Below are positions 4,400-59,968 of a stretch of 64,000 nucleotides of DNA, one piece after another. Made by a program: the position numbers and the translations under genes. This DNA is from Escherichia phage DT571/2. The notes beneath the pieces are model-generated. The model worked only from the letters and a program-made list of their open reading frames with translations, was not told the origin of the DNA and made no database searches. How positions within the stretch are numbered: position 1 is the stretch's first letter; each line of letters starts with the position of its first letter. The DNA lies in sequence record NC_047749.1, one strand, 5' to 3'.

Positions 4400-5239
4400 T
4401 TAAGAGGACATTTTAGCTTTAAGAGCTGGATGAGGATCGTACCCCTCTAAGTGGAATGACCAGGCTGCTGTATTATTTTCTAATAAGTCGTAAAGATCTA
4501 CAAATTCTGGCATTACTAGAGTTGGTAAAGAACGAGGTTTACGTTTTACCTGTTCTTCTACCTGTTCCATGTGGTCATTATAGATATGAGTATCACCGCC
4601 ACTAAAGATAAGATAACGAGGTTTTAATCCTGTCAGTTTTGCTAATATATGCGTTAATAAAGCATAACTAGCGATATTGAAAGGTAAACCGAGGAAACAA
4701 TCCACAGAGCGTTGTGTCCATTTAAGATCTAAGTACCCATCATTACTTACATAGCACTGGAAGCCGTAGTGACAGGGTGGTAATGCCATTTTATCAAGTT
4801 CAGCTACGTTCCATGCAGAAACTAGATGTCTGCGGCCATGTGGATTATTCTTGAGTCCTTCAATAAGTTCTAGAATCTGATCTCGCCCACCAAAGTTACG
4901 CCACTGTTTACCATATACTGGTCCTAGATTACCATTATCATATCCCATACTTATAGCTTGGTCTTCATAATTTGGAGTCCAGATGGTCCACTGTCCTTCG
5001 TCACGACCAAATGTGAATACACGTAGATCATGAAGATTTGTGGAACCAGACAAGAACCATAAAAGTTCTCCAACTACCGATTTCCAAGCTAGACGTTTAG
5101 TAGTTACAGCCGGGAACCCGTCACGTAGATCGAACTTAGCATAGGAATCAAAAATTGAAACTGTGCCTGTTCCTGTACGGTCATTACGGGGTTCACCTAG
5201 TAAAATTACATCTGTCAAAATTTTTAAGTATTGTTGCAT
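4400..5239 (-). CDS. thyA: Thymidylate synthase
   Basis: Active-site LPPCH motif, 279 aa typical length. Confidence 0.95.
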   Translation of the reverse strand: MQQYLKILTDVILLGEPRNDRTGTGTVSIFDSYAKFDLRDGFPAVTTKRLAWKSVVGELLWFLSGSTNLHDLRVFTFGRDEGQWTIWTPNYEDQAISMGYDNGNLGPVYGKQWRNFGGRDQILELIEGLKNNPHGRRHLVSAWNVAELDKMALPPCHYGFQCYVSNDGYLDLKWTQRSVDCFLGLPFNIASYALLTHILAKLTGLKPRYLIFSGGDTHIYNDHMEQVEEQVKRKPRSLPTLVMPEFVDLYDLLENNTAAWSFHLEGYDPHPALKAKMSS

Positions 5240-5772
5240 TAATAAGTAACCAATTCCTGTACAAATCGCAGGCTGTTATCACTGTTTGCGCCAGTTGCGT
5301 AAACTAATCGAGTAGATTCATAGTTGTAATCTAGAATCGTATTATCCAGATGTACATCTGCCTCTAGCTTCTGTTCGCTAAAGATTGTAGATACAAAAGC
5401 ACTTTCTATATGCCCATGTTGGTACATCTCTAGAAGAAGATTAGCTCCGCCTAGAACTACTGTTTGCTGATCTTTTAAGAACGTGGGCAATGTATCCCCA
5501 ATCTTAGAAATTGGGGTGTAAATATCATGTGTAATATCGTCTGGCAATGGACGATCAGCACGAATAAATAGGTCAGAAGTTCCAATCATACGTTCCCTAA
5601 CGGCGTATGGAAGAGCTAAATAAGTACCAGCACCAATAATAATATTATTAGGATTTAGTACATCTAATTGTGAATAAAAAGCACCTAGTTCTTCTTTAAA
5701 AGAACCCCAGGGAAGCTTACCTCGGAGGCCGAACTCCCCATTCGGCCCAACTGCATACATTGCTGTAATCAC
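5239..5772 (-). CDS. frd: Dihydrofolate reductase
   Basis: 177 aa, LPW motif near N-terminus; start/stop overlap with thyA and nrdB (operon coupling). Confidence 0.75.
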   Translation of the reverse strand: MITAMYAVGPNGEFGLRGKLPWGSFKEELGAFYSQLDVLNPNNIIIGAGTYLALPYAVRERMIGTSDLFIRADRPLPDDITHDIYTPISKIGDTLPTFLKDQQTVVLGGANLLLEMYQHGHIESAFVSTIFSEQKLEADVHLDNTILDYNYESTRLVYATGANSDNSLRFVQELVTY

Positions 5773-20970: not shown

Positions 20971-21381
20971 ATGACTACTCCAACTCAGTGGACTGATGAA
21001 CTGTTCGAAAAAATGTCTTCCGAATACGTTGCTCGTATGGAGCAATTCCCAGAGGATGAACGTCCGAGTGTTAGCATGGAAATTGTTAGTGAAATTGCCC
21101 AGGAAAATGGTGTAACTCCGAACGGTTTTCGTATGAAGCTGACTAAAGCAGGTTTGTATATTAAGAAAGCTGCTGGCTCTGCTTCTAAATCTAGTGCATC
21201 TACTGGAGAAAAAGCTTCCGGTGGTTCTCGTACCTCCAAAGCCCAGGCTCATGCCGACCTTCGTTCAGCGTTCTCTGATGCTGGCTTAGCACCAGATTTT
21301 CTGGATGATGCAATTATCGACAAACTGACCGGTAAAGCGGCTGCTCATCTGGCAGAAGCAATCCGAGCTATCACTAAGTAA
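20971..21381 (+). CDS. Hypothetical protein (136 aa), codon usage suggests high expression
   Basis: Own promoter 20885-20913; AAGGAAAT RBS. Confidence 0.65.
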   Translation: MTTPTQWTDELFEKMSSEYVARMEQFPEDERPSVSMEIVSEIAQENGVTPNGFRMKLTKAGLYIKKAAGSASKSSASTGEKASGGSRTSKAQAHADLRSAFSDAGLAPDFLDDAIIDKLTGKAAAHLAEAIRAITK

Positions 21382-21733: not shown

Positions 21734-22042
21734 ATGAGCGATCAGGTAAACCAAAACTATGAAGGACACGTTGATGATCAGTCAATCCTTCTATGGGAAA
21801 GAGAAGGGGAACAAATAAGATTGACAGTATCTGAATTTCGTGGGAATCTATACATGGGAATTAGGTATTGGCTCCAGGATATTACTGGAGAATGGTTTCC
21901 AACGAAATCCGGCTTCTCTTTTCCGTACACTCTAGAAACTACTTCACAGCTATTCTATGCTTTTACGCAAATCCTTAGTGAATCTGAGGTTTTACATGAA
22001 GTACAGAAACGAGCTGAAGAACTCAAAGCCAAGAATGCCTAG
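21734..22042 (+). CDS. Hypothetical protein (102 aa)
   Basis: ORF ends inside terminator stem. Confidence 0.6.
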   Translation: MSDQVNQNYEGHVDDQSILLWEREGEQIRLTVSEFRGNLYMGIRYWLQDITGEWFPTKSGFSFPYTLETTSQLFYAFTQILSESEVLHEVQKRAEELKAKNA

Positions 22043-22328: not shown

Positions 22329-23292
22329 TGTAAAAGAATTTATTAAACGCTGTCAAGAAGCATATTATCAAGGCATGTCTTTAATCTCTGATGAAGAATA
22401 TGATCGCCTGGTAAAACGCTTCCCGTTAGAGGAAGAGATCGGGCCTAAGGGTGATATTCCACATCTATACCGTATGTATTCTTTACAGAAAGTTTATTAT
22501 AATCGTGGAGATAAACCCCCATTTAACCCGTTAGGTCAAGTAGAAACTGATAAGTTAGATGGTTGTGCAATTTCCCTGCTATATATTAATGGCGAATTTG
22601 TTCAAGCACTAACTCGTGGTAATGGTATTCTGGGAAATGATGTCACAAGCAACGTAAGATTGCTGAACATCCCTAAAAAGATTTCTCAAAAAGTACCTAC
22701 TCAAATCACTGGTGAAGTTCTAATTACAAAAGAAGTAGAAAATAAACGTAACTTTGCCTCTGGTGCTATTAACCTCAAAGATAGTGATGATTTCGTACAG
22801 CGTATCGGGGAAGGTGGTTTAATCTTCGTTGCATACGGTATCCAGTGTTCTGCTGAATCTGTAGGTATTACAGAAGCGTATTTAAAAGATATGCTTTGGC
22901 TAGAGAATGAGAACTTCTTAACAGTTGTTAATGTACGTTCCTTCTTTAAATGGATTCCAACGGACGGTAAAGTTGTTCGTATTAATGATAACAACAAATT
23001 CTTCCGTGAAGGCTGGACTAATAAATTTCCTCGCGGTGCATTTGCTATTAAAGAGGATGAAGAAGGTGAGACTACAACTCTTACTAAAGTTGAATGGAAT
23101 GTAGGGGCTTCTGGTAAAGTAACTCCAGTCGGTTATTTTGAACCAGTAATTATTGATGATGCTACAATTGTTAAAGCGACTCTTAATAACGTTGATTATA
23201 TTAACTCTCTCGATCTAGAGATCGGTTGCCAGATTCGAGTGATTCGTGCTGGTGGTGTAATCCCGTGCATAGTAGAACGAGTATACGATTAA
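22318..23292 (+). CDS. ligA: NAD-dependent DNA ligase, N-terminal part (adenylation + OB domains)
   Basis: Adenylation KxDG motif in TDKLDGCAISLLY; 324 aa; separate downstream ORF carries Zn-finger/HhH/BRCT part. Confidence 0.88.
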   Translation: MMTNVKEFIKRCQEAYYQGMSLISDEEYDRLVKRFPLEEEIGPKGDIPHLYRMYSLQKVYYNRGDKPPFNPLGQVETDKLDGCAISLLYINGEFVQALTRGNGILGNDVTSNVRLLNIPKKISQKVPTQITGEVLITKEVENKRNFASGAINLKDSDDFVQRIGEGGLIFVAYGIQCSAESVGITEAYLKDMLWLENENFLTVVNVRSFFKWIPTDGKVVRINDNNKFFREGWTNKFPRGAFAIKEDEEGETTTLTKVEWNVGASGKVTPVGYFEPVIIDDATIVKATLNNVDYINSLDLEIGCQIRVIRAGGVIPCIVERVYD

Positions 23293-23342
23293 TACATAAC
23301 CCTTTGCTACCCATTTACCATATCGGAATTATAAAGTGGTTA

Positions 23343-23371
23343 TTGACATTTTCGCCGCTTAGGTATATACT
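23343..23371 (+). promoter_or_regulatory. Near-consensus sigma70 promoter TTGACA-17-TATACT between ligA and ligB
   Basis: Hexamers/spacing. Confidence 0.6.
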
Positions 23372-23435
23372 ATTATCATTCAGTTGAGGGATAGAAAGTT
23401 ATGGCGAGGGTAAGCAAAGTTAGTTAAAATTGTAG

Positions 23436-23464
23436 TTGCTAAATGCTTAAATACTTGCTATAAT
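23436..23464 (+). promoter_or_regulatory. Sigma70-type promoter TTGCTA-17-TATAAT upstream of ligB
   Basis: Hexamers/spacing. Confidence 0.65.
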
Positions 23465-23494
23465 ATTTATATAAATTGATAAGGAAGAAATTTG

Positions 23495-24274
23495 ATGAAA
23501 ATCGAAATTCCAACACAATGTCCCTCTTGTGGTTCTAAGCTAGATCTTGTCAACGGACAATTATTCTGTCGTAATAAGTCCAACTGTCCAGCGCAATCAA
23601 GTAAGTTAATTGAGAACTTCTGTACAAAAATGAAGTTAAAGGGCTTTGGCCCGAAAACTATTGAGAAGCTGGAGCTGACGAAGATTTCAGAACTATTTTA
23701 CCTAACCGAAGAAGATTTGGTTAGAGCCGTGGGTAGCAAGGTTGCCGCTAAGTTAATTAGCGAATTAAATACTAAAGTTCGCGGAGACATTGACTTTGGT
23801 TCAGTTCTCGGTTCTTTAGGAATCCCTCTAATTGGAGAGGTTGCAGCAAAGAAATTATCCCAAAATTGCACTAGCTTCCACGATGTGAAGGCTGACGGCA
23901 AGGCTGGAGAAAACTATAAAGCCTGGCTAAATTCCCCACAAGGCAAGGATGTTATCGAATTACCGTGGAAATTCTCAAATGGTATTAAAGGTGCTAAAGC
24001 TGACATCATCATTACAGATGAATTAGTTGCCCCGCCAAATGGAATCACGGTGTGTATTACCGGATCTTTGCAAGATTTTGCAAATCGAACGGATGCAACA
24101 AACTATCTAGAAGGTCTAGGGTATACTGTTAAAAAATCAGTTACCAAAGACGTTAAATACCTCATCTGTGAGGATGAATCTAAGCGTTCTTCCTCATCTT
24201 ATAAGAAAGCCGAAACGAATGGGATAGAAATCCTGTCGATTAAAGAACTATTGGAGAAAAATAATAATGTCTAA
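23495..24274 (+). CDS. ligB: NAD-dependent DNA ligase, C-terminal part (Zn finger, HhH, BRCT)
   Basis: CPSCGSKLDL...CRNKSNCPAQ Zn ribbon; BRCT-like C-terminus; ATG with AAGGAAG RBS. Confidence 0.88.
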   Translation: MKIEIPTQCPSCGSKLDLVNGQLFCRNKSNCPAQSSKLIENFCTKMKLKGFGPKTIEKLELTKISELFYLTEEDLVRAVGSKVAAKLISELNTKVRGDIDFGSVLGSLGIPLIGEVAAKKLSQNCTSFHDVKADGKAGENYKAWLNSPQGKDVIELPWKFSNGIKGAKADIIITDELVAPPNGITVCITGSLQDFANRTDATNYLEGLGYTVKKSVTKDVKYLICEDESKRSSSSYKKAETNGIEILSIKELLEKNNNV

Positions 24275-25034
24275 ACTGAACTGGAACGTAGAAGGTGTAA
24301 CCGAGTCTCTGAAAGCAAAAGCCACTGCTCTGGGTGTTGCTGTAATCTCTCAAGAACAAGTAGCTGCTATCGCTGCTGAACTGGCTGCTGAAACTGGCAA
24401 AGACGTTACCGCTCGCTCTGTTGGCTCTAAGCTGCGTAAAGAAGGTTTCGAAGTACAGAAAGCTAACGAAGTACAGAAATCCCCGTGGACTCCTGAGCAG
24501 GAAGCTGAACTGGTTGATTTCCTGAACTCTCATGCTGGTCAGTATACTTATGCTGAAATCGCTGCTGCTGTAGCTGGTGGTCAGTTCGGTGCTAAACAGG
24601 TACAGGGTAAGATCCTGAGTCTGGAAATGACCGCTTCTGTTAAACCAACTGAAAAAGCTGCTGCTGTTCGTTCCTTCACTCCGGATGAAGAAACTGATTT
24701 TGTTAATCAGGTTGTTGCTGGTGCTACTATTGAAGCTATCGCTGCCCACTTCGGTCGCAATATTAAGCAGATCCGTGGTAAAGCTCTGAGTCTGCTTCGT
24801 GAAGGTCGTATCGCTGCTATGCCGGTACAGGAAACTTCAAGTGCTAAAACTCGTGAAGATCTGCTAGAAGGTCTGGATCTGGCTAACATGACTGTTGCTG
24901 AGATCGCTGAGAAAACTGGTAAGTCTGAGCGCGGTGTTAAATCTATGCTGTCTCGTCGTGGTCTGGTTGCTAAGGACTATGATGGTGCCGCTAAGCGTGC
25001 TAAACTGGATGCAAAAGCTGCGGCTGCTGAATAA
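24267..25034 (+). CDS. Protein with four tandem ~45-aa HTH-like repeats, likely abundant DNA-binding protein
   Basis: Repeats of T-x-E-x-E ... EIAA-x-x-G ... GK-x-LSL; codon usage rich in ctg/cgt/ggt/gct; followed by strong terminator. Confidence 0.75.
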   Translation: MSKLNWNVEGVTESLKAKATALGVAVISQEQVAAIAAELAAETGKDVTARSVGSKLRKEGFEVQKANEVQKSPWTPEQEAELVDFLNSHAGQYTYAEIAAAVAGGQFGAKQVQGKILSLEMTASVKPTEKAAAVRSFTPDEETDFVNQVVAGATIEAIAAHFGRNIKQIRGKALSLLREGRIAAMPVQETSSAKTREDLLEGLDLANMTVAEIAEKTGKSERGVKSMLSRRGLVAKDYDGAAKRAKLDAKAAAAE

Positions 25035-25051
25035 TCTGGTAAATTAAACCT

Positions 25052-25085
25052 AAGGGGAGGGGGCTATGCTCCTTCCCCTTTTTGC
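25052..25085 (+). terminator. Intrinsic terminator after HTH-repeat protein gene
   Basis: ~12-bp G/C-rich stem (AAGGGGAGGGGG ... CTCCTTCCCCTT) followed by TTTTTG. Confidence 0.75.
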
Positions 25086-25116
25086 ATTTAGAAGGCACGA
25101 AAGCGTGCAAAGGAGA

Positions 25117-26589
25117 ATGACCTTGTTTAACGTGCAAGCTGTAGTGTTGAAGATGCTTCTAGCTTCAGAACAGAAGCAAATAGCATTGGAAACATTCTCA
25201 AAACTGCATAAAGATCATTTTAATGACGCTTTCTCCTCAATTTACCAAGCCGTCCAGAATTATTATAAAAAGTATAACACAATGCCGTCCATTGACGCAC
25301 TGATGCTTGAGGCTAATAGGAACGCCCGCCTTTCTCAAGCTCTAGTCGTTTTAGCTAACACTCAAATTCCAGAAGTTAGCATGGAACAGGCACTTGAAGT
25401 CCTAGAGGCCGAGTATACACAGGATTTATTCCTGAAGCTTCTAGAAACAGACGTGCTTCAAGATTTAACAATGCTGGATCAGGGAGAAATTCTTAACCGA
25501 GTTGCCTCCCTTCACTTAAAATTAGAAGAGAAAGTAACGAATACTGGAAAAGTATTCAACGCAGATAACATGCGTATTTTCCAGAGAGAAGAAGATACCA
25601 AACTGAACTTAATCGCTCTTGGTATTTGTAATGAGTTCGACGCTCAAATTGGTTTAGCTCGCACAGAAACGTTACTGCTTGGTGGTTGGCGTGGTACTGG
25701 TAAATCCATTATCTGTTCAAACATACAGGTTCAGCAATATTTGAATGGAGATATTGCTCCATACTTCTCAATTGAGATGAAAGAACATGAAGTATTTAGA
25801 CGTAATCTAGCTATGTTAGCTGGTGTATCAGCACTAGCAATGCGTAATAATACTCTAGAAGGTGCAGCTCTGTTGAGATTAGCCAGAACTAGAGCTAGGA
25901 TGTTTAACGGTGGTGAAGAGCTTTTCGATAACTTCGTTAAACAGTATACAATGGCTAAGATGTGTGATTTCTACGATATGGAAAGTAAGCTAATAGAAGG
26001 GTATGAGCTACATACTCCTATGATTATTGTTTATGATCCTGAGCTGTCTATTACAACAGTTGACGTAGAATTAAATAAATTAGTTGCTAGATACGGGGAT
26101 AAAGTTACAGTAGCTTTACTAGACTATATTAACCAAACCCGACTTCCAGACTCTAAAACCATTGATATGTATGACTGGAAAGAACAGATGGTTGTTAGCT
26201 CGTCTTTCAAATCTATCTGCCAGAAACATAACGTGGCTGGTGTAGCTCCTTACCAGATCGATCAAGATGGTAGAACACGTATGTCGAAGGGGATTCTTGA
26301 TTCCGCAGACATGGCTGCTAATCTTAATGCTGCAAAAGCTGATAATGGTCAAGGTGCTATTATGTTTGACTTCGTTAAGACTCGGTCTTCTGATAGCGTG
26401 AAGTTTATGCCTAAAATGAACTGGGAAACCCTGCGGATGGATAACACTACCAACCTAGCAATGGAAGATATATCTCAAATGGAAGCTGAGTTCGTTATCC
26501 CTATTGAGAAGGATAAGCCGGCTCAATCCAAACGTGCTAAGAAAGACAAAGCTGAAAATTCAACAGGTGAACAGGCCAGCGATATATGA
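25117..26589 (+). CDS. DnaB-like replicative helicase (RecA-fold ATPase)
   Basis: Walker A LLLGGWRGTGKS; track start 25066 lies inside terminator hairpin so internal ATG 25117 (or TTG 25123) preferred. Confidence 0.8.
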   Translation: MTLFNVQAVVLKMLLASEQKQIALETFSKLHKDHFNDAFSSIYQAVQNYYKKYNTMPSIDALMLEANRNARLSQALVVLANTQIPEVSMEQALEVLEAEYTQDLFLKLLETDVLQDLTMLDQGEILNRVASLHLKLEEKVTNTGKVFNADNMRIFQREEDTKLNLIALGICNEFDAQIGLARTETLLLGGWRGTGKSIICSNIQVQQYLNGDIAPYFSIEMKEHEVFRRNLAMLAGVSALAMRNNTLEGAALLRLARTRARMFNGGEELFDNFVKQYTMAKMCDFYDMESKLIEGYELHTPMIIVYDPELSITTVDVELNKLVARYGDKVTVALLDYINQTRLPDSKTIDMYDWKEQMVVSSSFKSICQKHNVAGVAPYQIDQDGRTRMSKGILDSADMAANLNAAKADNGQGAIMFDFVKTRSSDSVKFMPKMNWETLRMDNTTNLAMEDISQMEAEFVIPIEKDKPAQSKRAKKDKAENSTGEQASDI

Positions 26590-32166: not shown

Positions 32167-32451
32167 ATGCTTACAGAGCCTGATGCTCACCAATTATTGG
32201 TCGGTTCCTCGTTCATTTTGAACGAATCAACGATAGTTGATAATCCAAATAAATTGTCTAATAGACAACTGGCAGAATATCTAGGAATTTTAAGTCTACG
32301 AAATTATGCCGAATACAAGTTTACAAACGATCCTAGTTTGGACATACAATATGTCCCAGTATGGATACCACGTTTAGTAATCGACACTAACCCACTAATC
32401 GCAATTAACAAATCGAAATTAATCTTTAAAGAGGAAATAAAATATGGCTAA
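32167..32451 (+). CDS. Hypothetical protein (94 aa), weak call
   Basis: No clear RBS; overlaps start of next gene. Confidence 0.3.
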   Translation: MLTEPDAHQLLVGSSFILNESTIVDNPNKLSNRQLAEYLGILSLRNYAEYKFTNDPSLDIQYVPVWIPRLVIDTNPLIAINKSKLIFKEEIKYG

Positions 32452-33217
32452 GTCTTGGGGCGAAACTACTGGCGGTTCTAACGATAAAATCGAATTCCTG
32501 AAGTTCAACAACGGTATCACTCGTGTTCGTATCGTTTCTGGTGTTCTTCCACGTTATGTCTATTGGCTGACTAATAAAGAGGGTAGCGTAGCTCCTTTCG
32601 AATGTCTCCGTTTTAATCGTGACAAAGAGAGCTTTGTTCGTGGTAAAGCTGATCCGGTTCATGAGATGGGCTTCTTTGAGAAAGAGCTGGATAAAGATGG
32701 TAACCGCGTTCCGCTGAAACCGAAGAAAAACTATATCGCTTTTGTTATCGACCGTTCTGATAACAAACTGAAAGTAATGGAAGTCAAAGCTACTATTCTG
32801 AAAGGCATCCAGTCTATCATGAAGCAGTTGAGTCTGGCAACCCCGTTTGATATTGATATTTCTATCGAGAAAAAAGGCAAAGGTTTCGATACTGAGTATG
32901 ATGTACAGCAGATTGCTGCTATGCAGTTCCAGATTAAGCTGCAAGATCCTAACAGTGCAGAATCTAAGCAATATGCTGCGGATGTAGATCTGATTGGTGA
33001 AGCTATGTGTGATGAAGATGGCGACATCATTAAGTTCGAAAAAGTTCCTTCCCTGGAACAAACCTATCCGGTTCCTACCTATGAAGAGCAGAAAGAAGCA
33101 ATTCAAGCCTTCATGGAAGGTCGTGAGAATAAAGATGATGATGCCAAATCTGGTAACAGCAATGCTGGTTCCCAGAAAGGTATTGACCAAGAAGCTGCAA
33201 GCGATCTGGACGACTAA
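32444..33217 (+). CDS. Highly expressed protein with acidic C-terminal tail; candidate ssDNA-binding protein
   Basis: AAAGAGGAAAT RBS, strongly biased codon usage, C-terminal ...DQEAASDLDD tail; strong terminator follows. Confidence 0.7.
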   Translation: MAKSWGETTGGSNDKIEFLKFNNGITRVRIVSGVLPRYVYWLTNKEGSVAPFECLRFNRDKESFVRGKADPVHEMGFFEKELDKDGNRVPLKPKKNYIAFVIDRSDNKLKVMEVKATILKGIQSIMKQLSLATPFDIDISIEKKGKGFDTEYDVQQIAAMQFQIKLQDPNSAESKQYAADVDLIGEAMCDEDGDIIKFEKVPSLEQTYPVPTYEEQKEAIQAFMEGRENKDDDAKSGNSNAGSQKGIDQEAASDLDD

Positions 33218-58591: not shown

Positions 58592-59968
58592 TTAAGATGC
58601 AGCGTAAGCACCGGATACAACGCCGTTCTCGAAGTAACGTTGCAGGTTAACACGCTGAGTAACGTAGTATGCGTCACGCTGTTTGCCAGCTTGGCGCTCA
58701 CGTTCAACAGTAACAGCACGCTGACGTGGCATCACGAAGTTATCTTTATAAACAATAACTGCGAACTCTTTACCAGCTGCTTTAGCTGGGAAGTACTCAG
58801 AAACTACAACCGGCAGACCATAAATACGACCAACCTGACCCTGCAGTTTAACAGCATCATTACCAACCTGAGCAACATCCTGCCATTCTTCATCTTCCAG
58901 CAGATCGTAGTAAGCATCCATAGATACAATCAGTACCAGTTTGGACAGTTTCAGACCATGACGGCCCAGCTTACGACGCAGTTTAGAGATAGTTTTAGCA
59001 GTTACCAGAACAGAACCATCAGCTTTAGCTTCGGTAGTAACTTTAGCACTATCTTCACTAGCAAGAGTCAGCAGACCTTTCGGCTTACCAGAACCATCAC
59101 CAGTCATGAAGGCTTCTTCAATAGAAACAGCGTGTGCTTCAATTAGACGCTTACGAAGCAGTGGCAGCAGGGAGAAGATTGCATCTTCTTCAGTTTCATC
59201 AGTAATGAAGGATTTAGCAGCCAGTTTGTAAGTACTGAAGTGGATTTCTGTAAGAGCGCCTGTAACTTCGCTACCAGTAGTATTGTCACTACCATAAGCA
59301 GAAGCAGCAACCCAAGTAGCTCTACCAGCATCCGGTTCAACCAACATAGTAAGAATCTTACTGGACATCGGCAGTTCTTCGAACAGTGCGCCAACTACTA
59401 GCTCTTTCTGCAGGTCACGGATAATACGCTGAGAGAAAATAGTTTCATAGCTTTCACTAGAAACTTCTACAGAAGAGGACTGATTCACTGCTTTCAGGTG
59501 TTTTTGACCGTGTTCGGTTTCGAATACGCCTTTTTCCATTACATAGGACAACAGAACCAGTTTTTCTACTTCGTCTTCAAAGGTTTCCTGAGTACCGTAC
59601 AGTGCTTTAGCAACACTATCACCAACGAAGGAACGACCTTCACGAGCTGTTAGCAGAGACTTAATTTCGTCCTGAAGACCAACAATAGTTTCCTGTTGTT
59701 TTTCTACAGTTTGTGCAAACAGTTCTGCACTCTTCTTAGATTTCTCATCCAGAGACTTAACCAGTTCCAGAGCTTGTTCCAGTTTCTGACGATCTTCGCC
59801 AACTGCTTTAGAAACCAGGGCATTCATACGAGCCAGTTCTTTTTCTTCCTGCTCTTTACGCATACGTTCAGCTTCCTGAGCTTTCTGAGCAGCGGTCAGA
59901 CCTTCCAGAGATTTAGCCAGATCACCCAGACCAAGTTCTTCTTTCAGCTTATTAATATCAATAGTCAT
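58592..59968 (-). CDS. Major capsid protein precursor (T5 pb8-like; HK97 fold with N-terminal scaffolding delta domain)
   Basis: 458 aa as T5 pb8; N-terminal ~150-aa coiled-coil scaffold region; highly biased codon usage. Confidence 0.9.
   Translation of the reverse strand: MTIDINKLKEELGLGDLAKSLEGLTAAQKAQEAERMRKEQEEKELARMNALVSKAVGEDRQKLEQALELVKSLDEKSKKSAELFAQTVEKQQETIVGLQDEIKSLLTAREGRSFVGDSVAKALYGTQETFEDEVEKLVLLSYVMEKGVFETEHGQKHLKAVNQSSSVEVSSESYETIFSQRIIRDLQKELVVGALFEELPMSSKILTMLVEPDAGRATWVAASAYGSDNTTGSEVTGALTEIHFSTYKLAAKSFITDETEEDAIFSLLPLLRKRLIEAHAVSIEEAFMTGDGSGKPKGLLTLASEDSAKVTTEAKADGSVLVTAKTISKLRRKLGRHGLKLSKLVLIVSMDAYYDLLEDEEWQDVAQVGNDAVKLQGQVGRIYGLPVVVSEYFPAKAAGKEFAVIVYKDNFVMPRQRAVTVERERQAGKQRDAYYVTQRVNLQRYFENGVVSGAYAAS

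Follow-up and report, generated by a model that had tools for sequence, protein, structure and literature searches.

The open reading frame at positions 24267-25034 of the window (the whole 64,000-nucleotide stretch of Escherichia phage DT571/2 analysed here) is, judged by its sequence, gene D5 of a T5-like phage of the genus Tequintavirus, and its product is probably a stoichiometric, multivalent protein that coats double-stranded DNA and is built of four helix-turn-helix (HTH) modules. D5 is already known: the gene has carried its T5 name from the 1970s on, and the protein that it encodes is known to bind DNA. The coding sequence, on the + strand like every feature mapped below from the promoters to D6 unless stated otherwise, runs from an ATG at 24267 to a TAA at 25034 and encodes 255 aa plus the stop. 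It is the orthologue of T5 gene D5 (T5.118, YP_006946.1), with the same length and 252/255 identical amino acids, the only substitutions relative to T5 being A25D, S88A and A206V. The two phages are sisters carrying one and the same gene; among the records, DT57C comes nearest, and its D5 shares 99.7% nucleotide identity. Residues 1-253 match the profile PHROG 323, “transcriptional regulator, D5-like” (E 1.7e-71), and the gene is present in 901 phage records. The initial sequence-only reading had not recognised this classical named gene.

The neighbours are also those of T5 D5. Upstream lies ligB (23492-24274), encoding NAD-dependent DNA ligase subunit B and sharing a transcription unit with D5; the two genes overlap by 8 nt, from the D5 start to the ligB stop, and a marine relative also has a ligB/D5 overlap. 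A Shine-Dalgarno sequence, GGAGA, can be read at 24253-24257, its GGAG (24253-24256) ending 10 nt 5' of the ATG. The first gene on the downstream side is the D6 DnaB-like helicase gene, at 25117-26589 when its probable true start is used, the annotated start probably being wrong; 25066 is the other candidate start. D5 was found directly upstream of genes encoding a DnaB-type helicase, primase and PolA in the phage studied, DT57C, T5, Sugarland, PM135, River4 and the marine relative, a placement, within the replication module of Demerecviridae, kept in relatives at ~50% identity, and a five-unit variant of D5 in a more distant module is likewise directly upstream of DnaB, primase and PolA. An antisense ORF of 169 aa (24240-24749) lies opposite D5; in our judgement it is a by-product of the biased sense codons. 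An Rfam search of positions 23200-25300 gave no match.

The signals around the gene, and its codons, point to very high expression. Between ligA and ligB, the sequence shares 99% identity with the stretch of T5 that carries the annotated promoters P-K28b and P-K28a. A consensus scan identified here the promoter-like sites TTGACA-17-TATACT (23343-23371, 11/12 match), equivalent to P-K28b, and TTGCTA-17-TATAAT with an extended -10 TG (23436-23464), which comparison with T5 showed to be the equivalent of P-K28a. Among the 56 ORFs of the window, D5 has the highest CAI (0.715, z 4.7, with weights after Sharp & Li 1987) and the lowest ENC (30.2), the latter and the codon tables being independent of those weights. 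Its codon bias exceeds that of the major head protein, the SSB-family protein and D3; 89% of its Leu codons are CTG, against 18% elsewhere in the window, and 87% of its Ala codons are GCT. On the 3' side stands an intrinsic terminator (25052-25090) with a 13-bp stem (25052-25080, 8 G-C pairs) and a T-rich tail, the stem being followed by TTTGCATTT. Its folding energy of -25.5 kcal/mol was equalled by 2 of 200 shuffles, and it is 100% identical in T5. Hairpins with T-runs and other stem sequences were found at the same position in Sugarland, where the record annotates the hairpin as a terminator, Proteus PM135, Vibrio River4 and a marine contig, so that the position of a terminator after D5 is kept across five lineages and its sequence is not. 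The first-pass annotation had claimed a strongly biased, high-expression type of codon usage and a very stable terminator following the gene, and both claims are borne out. In this arrangement, D5 would be co-transcribed with ligB from two strong early promoters, its host-optimal codons would lead to very high translation, and the terminator would separate it from the downstream helicase, primase and polymerase genes; a layout of this kind, from promoter to terminator, would allow D5 levels to rise well beyond those of the replication enzymes. For both T5 and BF23, D5 has been described as “very abundant in lysates” (PMC10644984).

The same annotation had described four tandem repeats of ~45 aa with an HTH-like core. 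The AlphaFold2 (AF2) model of D5 is all-alpha and its fold is repetitive, not a single non-repetitive one. Unit 1 (residues 6-58, 24282-24440) is a three-helix HTH (helices 11-22, 29-43 and 49-58) with helix 3 aRSvGsKLRk; unit 2 (residues 74-118, 24486-24620) is a Myb-like three-helix HTH (helices 76-88, 95-101 and 109-118) with helix 3 aKQvQGKiLs; and unit 3 (residues 137-178, 24675-24800) is a three-helix HTH (helices 139-150, 155-162 and 166-178) with helix 3 ikqiRGKaLSLlr. Unit 4 (residues 196-231, 24852-24959) is an HTH resembling sigma-70 region 4, without a full helix 1 (reduced to 205-207, followed by helices 210-217 and 221-231) and with helix 3 erGvksmLsRR. A C-terminal helix (residues 240-254, 24984-25028) follows a conserved DYDG motif. 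With a pTM of 0.55, the model is less reliable on how the units are arranged than on each unit by itself.

Comparison of D5 with itself by BLASTP gave no internal repeat, and the repeats emerged from shuffle-controlled Smith-Waterman and profile methods. When segment pairs were aligned by Smith-Waterman against 2000 shuffles, the only supported pair was unit 2 (71-132) with unit 3 (133-192), at z 7.8 and 0/2000 shuffles; units 3 and 4 gave z 2.3, units 1 and 4 z 2.0, and units 1 and 2 were at chance. Aligned with itself over its full length, D5 scored at best 76 off the diagonal, compared with 37.8+-7.3 for shuffled sequences (z 5.2, above all 60). Aligning the sub-alignments of the units with hhalign gave 95.8% (E 7e-9) for units 2 and 3, 63% for units 3 and 4, 31-39% (E about 4e-4) for unit 1 against units 2, 3 and 4, and only 4% for units 2 and 4; the unit alignments share a register, and controls with reversed columns stayed below 1%. 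In addition, some homologues have five units and give a self-alignment z of 17-26. The helix triplets of the AF2 model, the profile matches and the five-unit homologues together indicate that D5 has four units, single-sequence significance being limited to units 2 and 3 while units 1 and 4 need the evidence of profiles, structure and copy-number variants. The number of repeats was thus right; a length of ~45 aa agrees with the core (about 36-48 aa) and not with the period (about 55-68 aa). Similarly, the proposed motif ..EIAA..G.......GK.LSL.. is exact in units 2 and 3 but only loose in units 1 and 4. Tandem Repeats Finder detected no DNA-level repeat matching the protein units, suggesting that their duplication is old.

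The HTH character of the units was supported by family searches as well as by the modelled helix triplets. Residues 204-230, in unit 4, gave the only above-threshold Pfam HTH match, to Sigma70_r4_2 (PF08281; 29.7 bits against a cutoff of 25.7), and 39/42 family members match this domain at E <= 0.01. Units 1-3 gave sub-threshold HTH, Myb and homeodomain matches in Pfam, including a Myb match at residues 71-100 of unit 2. The profile of unit 1 found engrailed-homeodomain variants (E 5.8e-5) and that of unit 3 the LuxR-type HTH of TraR and RcsB (E 0.004-0.06). Some D5 homologues carry PF26822 in the precomputed Pfam annotation. Conservation is centred on the third helices, whose 44 residues hold 13 of the 18 invariant residues (P 1e-7); in unit 1, R50, K55, L56 and R57 are invariant. 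Conservation this strong could also reflect recognition of specific sequences or contact with a protein partner. In the C-terminal region, G240 is invariant and D237 and K246 are at least 90% conserved, and the helix at 240-254 may serve in partner binding or cooperativity. The protein as a whole is nearly neutral (pI 6.8), with only unit 4 basic (pI 9.1), which is unusual for a DNA-coating protein and counts against the proposed coat.

The whole chain found nothing closer than E 0.13 in the PDB by Foldseek. Like the Myb/SANT/homeodomain tandems (c-Myb R1-R3, SNAPc4, Cef1/CDC5 and the Timeless DNA-binding domain), D5 consists of tandem three-helix HTH repeats, and 10/42 homologues match Myb PF00249 at E <= 0.01 (best 4.2e-6), although D5 itself, at 18.0 bits, is below the threshold of 24.4. 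Myb repeats typically have spaced tryptophans, whereas D5 has one aromatic residue per unit; it also differs from Myb-type proteins in coming from a phage and in being stoichiometrically abundant. Unit 4 passes the Sigma70_r4_2 threshold and the profile of unit 3 can be aligned with the HTHs of TraR and RcsB, but D5 is without sigma region 2 or 3 and without a receiver or ligand domain, so that only the HTH motif is held in common with sigma-70 region 4 and LuxR-type proteins.

The near-identity of the two proteins makes it safe to transfer function from T5 D5. In the T5 record, T5.118 carries the note [quoted passage not shown]. A role of D5 in DNA binding, replication and late transcription is also supported by the title of McCorquodale et al. 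1979 (J Virol 29:322). We propose that each module would set its conserved basic helix 3 on double-stranded DNA, that one D5 molecule would thereby span a long stretch of duplex and that the abundant protein would cover the phage DNA as a nucleoprotein coat. All four units may contact DNA. Rice et al., in 1979, reportedly found nonspecific, cooperative binding of D5 to double-stranded DNA, which is the basis of the term coating, and Fujimura & Roop are said to have found nonspecific, cooperative DNA binding in 1983. On this biochemistry of 1979-83, the binding is presumably nonspecific and cooperative. A coat would fit the published phenotypes in replication, late transcription and shutoff, and it might also bring about the early-to-late switch. 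The phage proteins phi29 p6 and SPO1 TF1 are early, very abundant proteins that bind double-stranded DNA and are needed for replication and for the early-to-late switch. The likeness of D5 to them would be a functional analogy only and we claim no homology; both have other folds and are small single-domain proteins, unlike the four-unit HTH array of D5. The guess in the first-pass annotation that an abundant multi-HTH protein could coat DNA has therefore gained support from the identity with T5 D5, a DNA-binding protein very abundant in lysates, with coating itself based on the report of 1979.

It is also conceivable, though on balance unlikely, that D5 acts mainly as a transcription factor on host RNA polymerase and that DNA coating is secondary. 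D5 would then be an adaptor resembling GcrA or sigma region 4, by which the sigma-70 holoenzyme is tethered to late promoters or blocked at early ones. The need for D5 in late transcription and its part in shutoff, both noted in the T5 record, would agree with this, and some records name D5 “late gene transcription factor”. Moreover, every class of T5 genes depends on the sigma-70 holoenzyme for its transcription (Klimuk 2020). Unit 4 scores above the Sigma70_r4_2 threshold, and the nearest structural neighbour of D5 is the DNA-binding domain of GcrA (Caulobacter crescentus, PDB 5yiu), with which it shares the fold of the N-terminal three-helix domain. GcrA is a sigma-70-binding regulator. The likeness is, however, confined to the DNA-binding domain: the GcrA family PF07750, which includes the C-terminal sigma-70-interacting domain, has no match in D5 itself and only sub-threshold matches in 4/42 homologues (E at least 0.003; 21.4 against 26.9 bits for P0182, at model positions 3-33 of 155). 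A sequence kinship between the units and GcrA was considered and rejected; searches with the full profile and with each of the four unit profiles all missed 5yiu, which leaves the link structural only. The T5 proteins reported as co-purifying with RNA polymerase are of 11, 15, 60 and 90 kDa, together with gpT5.026, and none is of ~27 kDa, the size of D5 (Klimuk 2020). The same comparison gives no support to the earlier guess that the protein sequesters a host transcription component. Finally, a codon bias above that of the major capsid protein and an abundance visible on gels fit a stoichiometric role better than that of a regulator.

Other identities are much less probable. A structural role for D5, in the virion or as an internal protein that is packaged together with the DNA, is very unlikely, even if mass spectrometry placed it among the major virion-associated proteins of phiR2-01, at high spectral counts in the virion preparation (PMC8624392). 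D5 is not among the T5 virion proteins (PMC8624392), purified BF23 virions lack it while the lysates are rich in it (PMC10644984), and the gene, an early one, lies within the replication module; carry-over of so plentiful a DNA-binding protein would explain the phiR2-01 result. Neither PHROG nor Pfam showed a match of D5 to a structural family, and homology to a virion protein, which would have spoken against the first reading, was thus not seen. We give almost no credence to the annotation in Salmonella phage Shivani (“RNA polymerase sigma factor”), which would make D5 a sigma factor of the phage and which agrees with the Sigma70_r4_2 match on residues 204-230, as sigma region 2 (Sigma70_r2, PF04542) has no match up to E 10 in D5 and is absent among the 25 families listed for 42 homologues, the whole-protein model TIGR02937 reaches 15.2 bits against a cutoff of 42.9 at positions 126-156 only, the AF2 model has four small HTH units and not a sigma fold, and T5 relies on the sigma-70 holoenzyme to transcribe its late genes (Klimuk 2020). 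Just as improbable is the single-stranded DNA-binding protein annotated in Klebsiella phage vB_Kpn_3, which would suit the replication module and the high expression: the all-alpha model has no OB fold, no SSB family match was found in Pfam or PHROG, and the window holds a separate SSB-family gene (32444-33217, PHROG 1607, E 3e-106) and a PC4-like gene (21734-22042). The preference of D5 for duplex DNA that is reported in the classical literature also counts against it. The database names “sigma factor”, “single stranded DNA-binding protein” and “transposase” are wrong for D5. The “phage-encoded DNA-binding protein” of a paper on DRT4 was considered as D5 and rejected, being T5 ORF55.

A coat of D5 on replicated DNA might further be the “nonspecific” factor through which T5-like genomes stay without Dam, Dcm and R-M methylation, and it may also help to make them insensitive to host nucleases, although we consider this distinctly doubtful. 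It would fit the great abundance of D5, its binding to duplex DNA and its conservation in Tequintavirus as well as Epseptimavirus, the genomes of both groups being hypomethylated (PMC10644984). The reading is weakened by a report, as cited in that paper, that infected-cell lysates contain no methylation inhibitor, and D5, as an early gene, cannot protect the incoming DNA. If it were true, D5 would be a DNA shield besides a replication and transcription factor.

In the literature searched, we found no description of D5 as an array of HTH modules, and the modestly new point is that D5, as modelled, consists of four three-helix HTH modules in a row, each of them Myb/GcrA-like. To this are added the conservation centred on the third helices, the presence of four or five units among relatives and a promoter-to-terminator design that would account for the abundance of the protein. 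The module map gives concrete residues and constructs with which to approach the early-to-late switch of a phage that works with an unmodified sigma-70 holoenzyme, and the same residues and constructs would serve the question of how T5-like DNA escapes methylation.

The open reading frame at 24267-25034 (+ strand) encodes a 255-aa product, a reading that agrees in coordinates and length with the first-pass annotation. Its ATG is preceded at 10 nt by a GGAG ribosome-binding site, and its first 8 nt are shared with the end of the upstream gene (stop at 24274). For the product, a mass of 27.0 kDa, a pI of 6.8 and an alanine content of 17.6% are predicted. The nearest DNA is that of Escherichia phage DT57C (99.7% identity), where the gene is annotated "D5 protein/DNA-binding protein", and 252 of the 255 residues are identical to T5 D5 (T5.118, YP_006946.1). 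According to the T5 record, D5 binds DNA, is needed for DNA replication as well as for late transcription, and takes part in the shutoff of expression; PHROGs assigns the protein to family 323, "transcriptional regulator, D5-like" (E 1.7e-71). It is near certain that this is a T5-type D5. Both the gene and its product were known before, as was the broad function, the founding paper reportedly being that of McCorquodale et al., and the first-pass annotation had found D5 anew in the raw sequence. D5 sequences 98-99% identical to that of the window also occur in records labelled Listeria phage LM 4-14-1 and 4-11-1 (OR848168.1 and OR847187.1) and in two partial proteins labelled Enterococcus faecalis (P0020 and P0038), and two Campylobacter-labelled records match as well; these labels likely reflect contamination or mislabelling.

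The T5 replication module runs through the window in the order D3, PC4-like gene, ligA, ligB, D5, D6 DnaB-like helicase, primase and DNA polymerase. Replisome genes always adjoin D5, including in relatives that are ~50% identical and in the five-unit variant of a more distant module (L009). Several features of this neighborhood were observed in passing. The PC4-like gene (21734-22042, +; ~102 aa), just upstream of the ligase genes, belongs to PHROG 4053, "transcriptional regulator", and its counterpart in the contig of a marine relative (L002, 5810-6118; PF02229) is conserved within the same module. Between ligA and ligB, the two parts of the split NAD-dependent ligase, lies a 200-bp gap (23293-23491) containing two strong promoter-like sites; in L009 the ligase is unsplit (596 aa). 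The place of ligB immediately upstream of the D5-like gene is taken in L009 by a gene matching Pfam Phage_T5_Nicking_endo (5154-5534) and a gene for dUTPase.

The first-pass annotation had proposed four ~45-aa HTH-like repeats, and internal-repeat detection gave a graded answer. Self-BLASTP of D5 returned no internal match. When the full-length protein was aligned with itself, the best off-diagonal score (z 5.2) exceeded all 60 shuffles. Smith-Waterman comparison of segment pairs against 2000 shuffles supported units 2 and 3 only (z 7.8, 0/2000), with weaker values for units 3-4 (z 2.3) and 1-4 (z 2.0) and chance level for units 1-2. The proposed repeat motif fits exactly in units 2 and 3. The four-repeat reading as a whole was confirmed by profiles and copy-number variants. 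Unit sub-alignments cut from a 42-sequence family alignment were compared profile to profile, giving probabilities of 95.8% for units 2-3 (E 7e-9), 63% for units 3-4, 31-39% for unit 1 against the others (E about 4e-4) and only 4% for units 2-4; the alignments share one register, and reversed-column controls stayed below 1%. The strongest argument for the repeats is comparative and comes from the variants. Searching 1.84 billion representatives with a profile retrieved ~55 full-length D5 clusters (233-262 aa) and, besides these, five-unit variants. Unit 2 is duplicated in P0121 (309 aa), whereas P0182 and P0192 carry a pair of nearly identical unit-3-type copies as well as additional HTH units, and self-alignment z-scores in these three proteins reach 17-26. 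The repeat period is about 55-68 aa with a core of 36-48 aa. No DNA-level repeat was found within the D5 gene of the window, which makes the duplication an ancient one. The D5 profile also matched four long proteins, P0247 (599 aa), P0237 (692 aa), P0251 (515 aa) and P0259 (1570 aa), in 6-10 separate stretches; by eye these contain many tandem HTH/Myb-like units, the modular logic of D5 on a larger scale.

Structure prediction likewise returned a repetitive fold. The AlphaFold2 model (42-sequence alignment; mean pLDDT 94.4, pTM 0.55) places four HTH units, with helices at residues 11-22, 29-43 and 49-58 (unit 1), 76-88, 95-101 and 109-118 (unit 2), 139-150, 155-162 and 166-178 (unit 3), and a vestigial 205-207 followed by 210-217 and 221-231 (unit 4), before a C-terminal helix (240-254). 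Whole-chain superposition on the BFVD model of a Vibrio phage D5 (53% identity) gave a TM of 0.69-0.72, so the overall arrangement is reproducible; by sequence, the family has no solved structure. At the level of sequence, the unit 1 profile resembles engrailed-type homeodomains (E 5.8e-5), unit 2 weakly matches Myb, unit 3 resembles the LuxR-type HTHs of TraR/RcsB (E 0.004-0.06), and unit 4 scores above threshold against Pfam Sigma70_r4_2 (29.7 vs 25.7 bits), which 39 of the 42 family members match at E <= 0.01.

In tri-helical HTH domains the third helix enters the major groove. The putative recognition helices of the four modules are the most conserved parts of D5: these helices, totalling 44 residues, hold 13 of the 18 invariant columns (hypergeometric P 1e-7) and 22 of the 48 columns with at least 90% identity (P 1.4e-7). 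They share the motif [R/K]-x-[V/I]-x-[G/S]-K-[L/I/A]-x-x (RSVGSKLRK, KQVQGKILS, KQIRGKALS and RGVKSMLSR). Conservation extends to linker positions V125-K126, R135, P186 and Q188 and to a DYDG motif that precedes the C-terminal helix.

High-expression-type codon usage was borne out among 56 non-overlapping window ORFs with a minimum length of 80 aa. D5 ranks first in CAI (0.715, z 4.7, against a mean of 0.287 with sd 0.109), calculated with weights after Sharp & Li 1987. It also ranks lowest in effective number of codons (30.2; median 45.6), and neither this measure nor the codon tables depend on those weights. CTG encodes 89% of its Leu vs 18% across the rest of the window, GCT 87% of Ala, GGT 89% of Gly and ATC 80% of Ile. 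Next come the major head protein (58592-59968, -; CAI 0.630), an SSB-family protein (32444-33217, +; 0.560) and the D3 "DNA binding protein" (20971-21381, +; 0.533), all needed in stoichiometric amounts. Within the replication region, strong host-type bias seems to be a mark of DNA-binding proteins required in stoichiometric quantity. A 169-aa antisense ORF inside D5 (minus strand, 24240-24749) is read as a by-product of GCT/CTG/GGT-rich sense codons and not as a gene. Published experiment agrees with the codon ranking, D5 being made in very large amounts and not packaged (PMC10644984). The sole report listing D5 among "major virion-associated proteins", in phiR2-01 (PMC8624392), is therefore best read as carry-over.

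Two near-consensus promoter-like sites (23343-23371 and 23436-23464, +) lie in the ligA-ligB gap. This gap shares 99% identity with the part of T5 for which promoters P-K28b and P-K28a are annotated. The very stable terminator noted after D5 is a hairpin at 25052-25080 (+) with a 13-bp stem, 8 G-C pairs and a T-rich tail; its folding energy of -25.5 kcal/mol was equalled by only 2 of 200 shuffles. The T5 hairpin is 100% identical and unannotated, and T-run hairpins with other stem sequences occupy the same position in Klebsiella phage Sugarland, whose record marks it as a terminator, and in Proteus phage PM135, Vibrio phage River4 and the marine contig. ligB and D5 thus form one unit, with strong promoters at one end and a position-conserved terminator at the other, which would let D5 accumulate in excess over helicase, primase and polymerase. 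A small hairpin (GCACG-AAAG-CGTGC, 25095-25108) between this terminator and the D6 ribosome-binding site, with comparable hairpins at the corresponding position of Sugarland and PM135, is a possible processing site or translational control. The D6 start in the T5 and DT57C records (region 25066-25119; T5 NC_005859 68109; DT57C 56538) is the ATG at 25066, inside the terminator loop. The helicases of Sugarland (MYNVQAVVLK), PM135 (MYNVQAIVLK) and River4 (MINVQAVVLK) start at the equivalent of the ATG at 25117, preceded by AAAGGAGA; 17 residues of the helicase as annotated are probably spurious.

We consider it likely that the protein is D5 acting as a multi-HTH coat on duplex DNA, and the coat mechanism itself is reasonably probable. 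One molecule would lay four helix-3 surfaces along the duplex. Rice et al. 1979 and Fujimura & Roop 1983 are said to have found cooperative, preferential dsDNA binding by D5. The outcome would be comparable to that of phi29 p6; the ancestry is not. Against a coat, the pI is 6.8 and unit 4 alone is basic, and helix-3 conservation fits specific recognition equally well.

That D5 is an RNA-polymerase-directed factor, GcrA-like or region-4-like, is unlikely. T5 does use the sigma-70 holoenzyme throughout, its switch being unexplained, but the T5 proteins reported as polymerase-associated are of 11, 15, 60 and 90 kDa plus gpT5.026 (Klimuk 2020, PMC7472727). D5 has no match to GcrA beyond the GcrA DNA-binding domain, and the relationship is structural only, since no full or unit D5 profile retrieves GcrA. 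Three other assignments fail: a sigma factor (Shivani annotation) has no region 2 here and TIGR02937 scores 15.2 bits vs a cutoff of 42.9; an SSB (vB_Kpn_3 annotation) conflicts with the all-alpha model and a separate SSB-family gene; and a virion protein is contradicted by BF23 proteomics, D5 being absent from purified virions (PMC10644984).

The four-module architecture, GcrA/Myb-like fold, helix-3 conservation and copy-number variants were not found described in the searchable literature; they are refinements, and no new kind of system. T5-like genomes are hypomethylated through an unidentified non-specific cause (PMC10644984), and it is quite doubtful that the D5 coat is that cause. The abundant multi-HTH protein that the first-pass annotation thought could coat DNA is indeed an abundant DNA-binding protein with four HTH modules. 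At the concentrations reached, D5 would cover phage DNA as a nucleoprotein coat, which could aid replication while silencing early promoters and favoring late ones.
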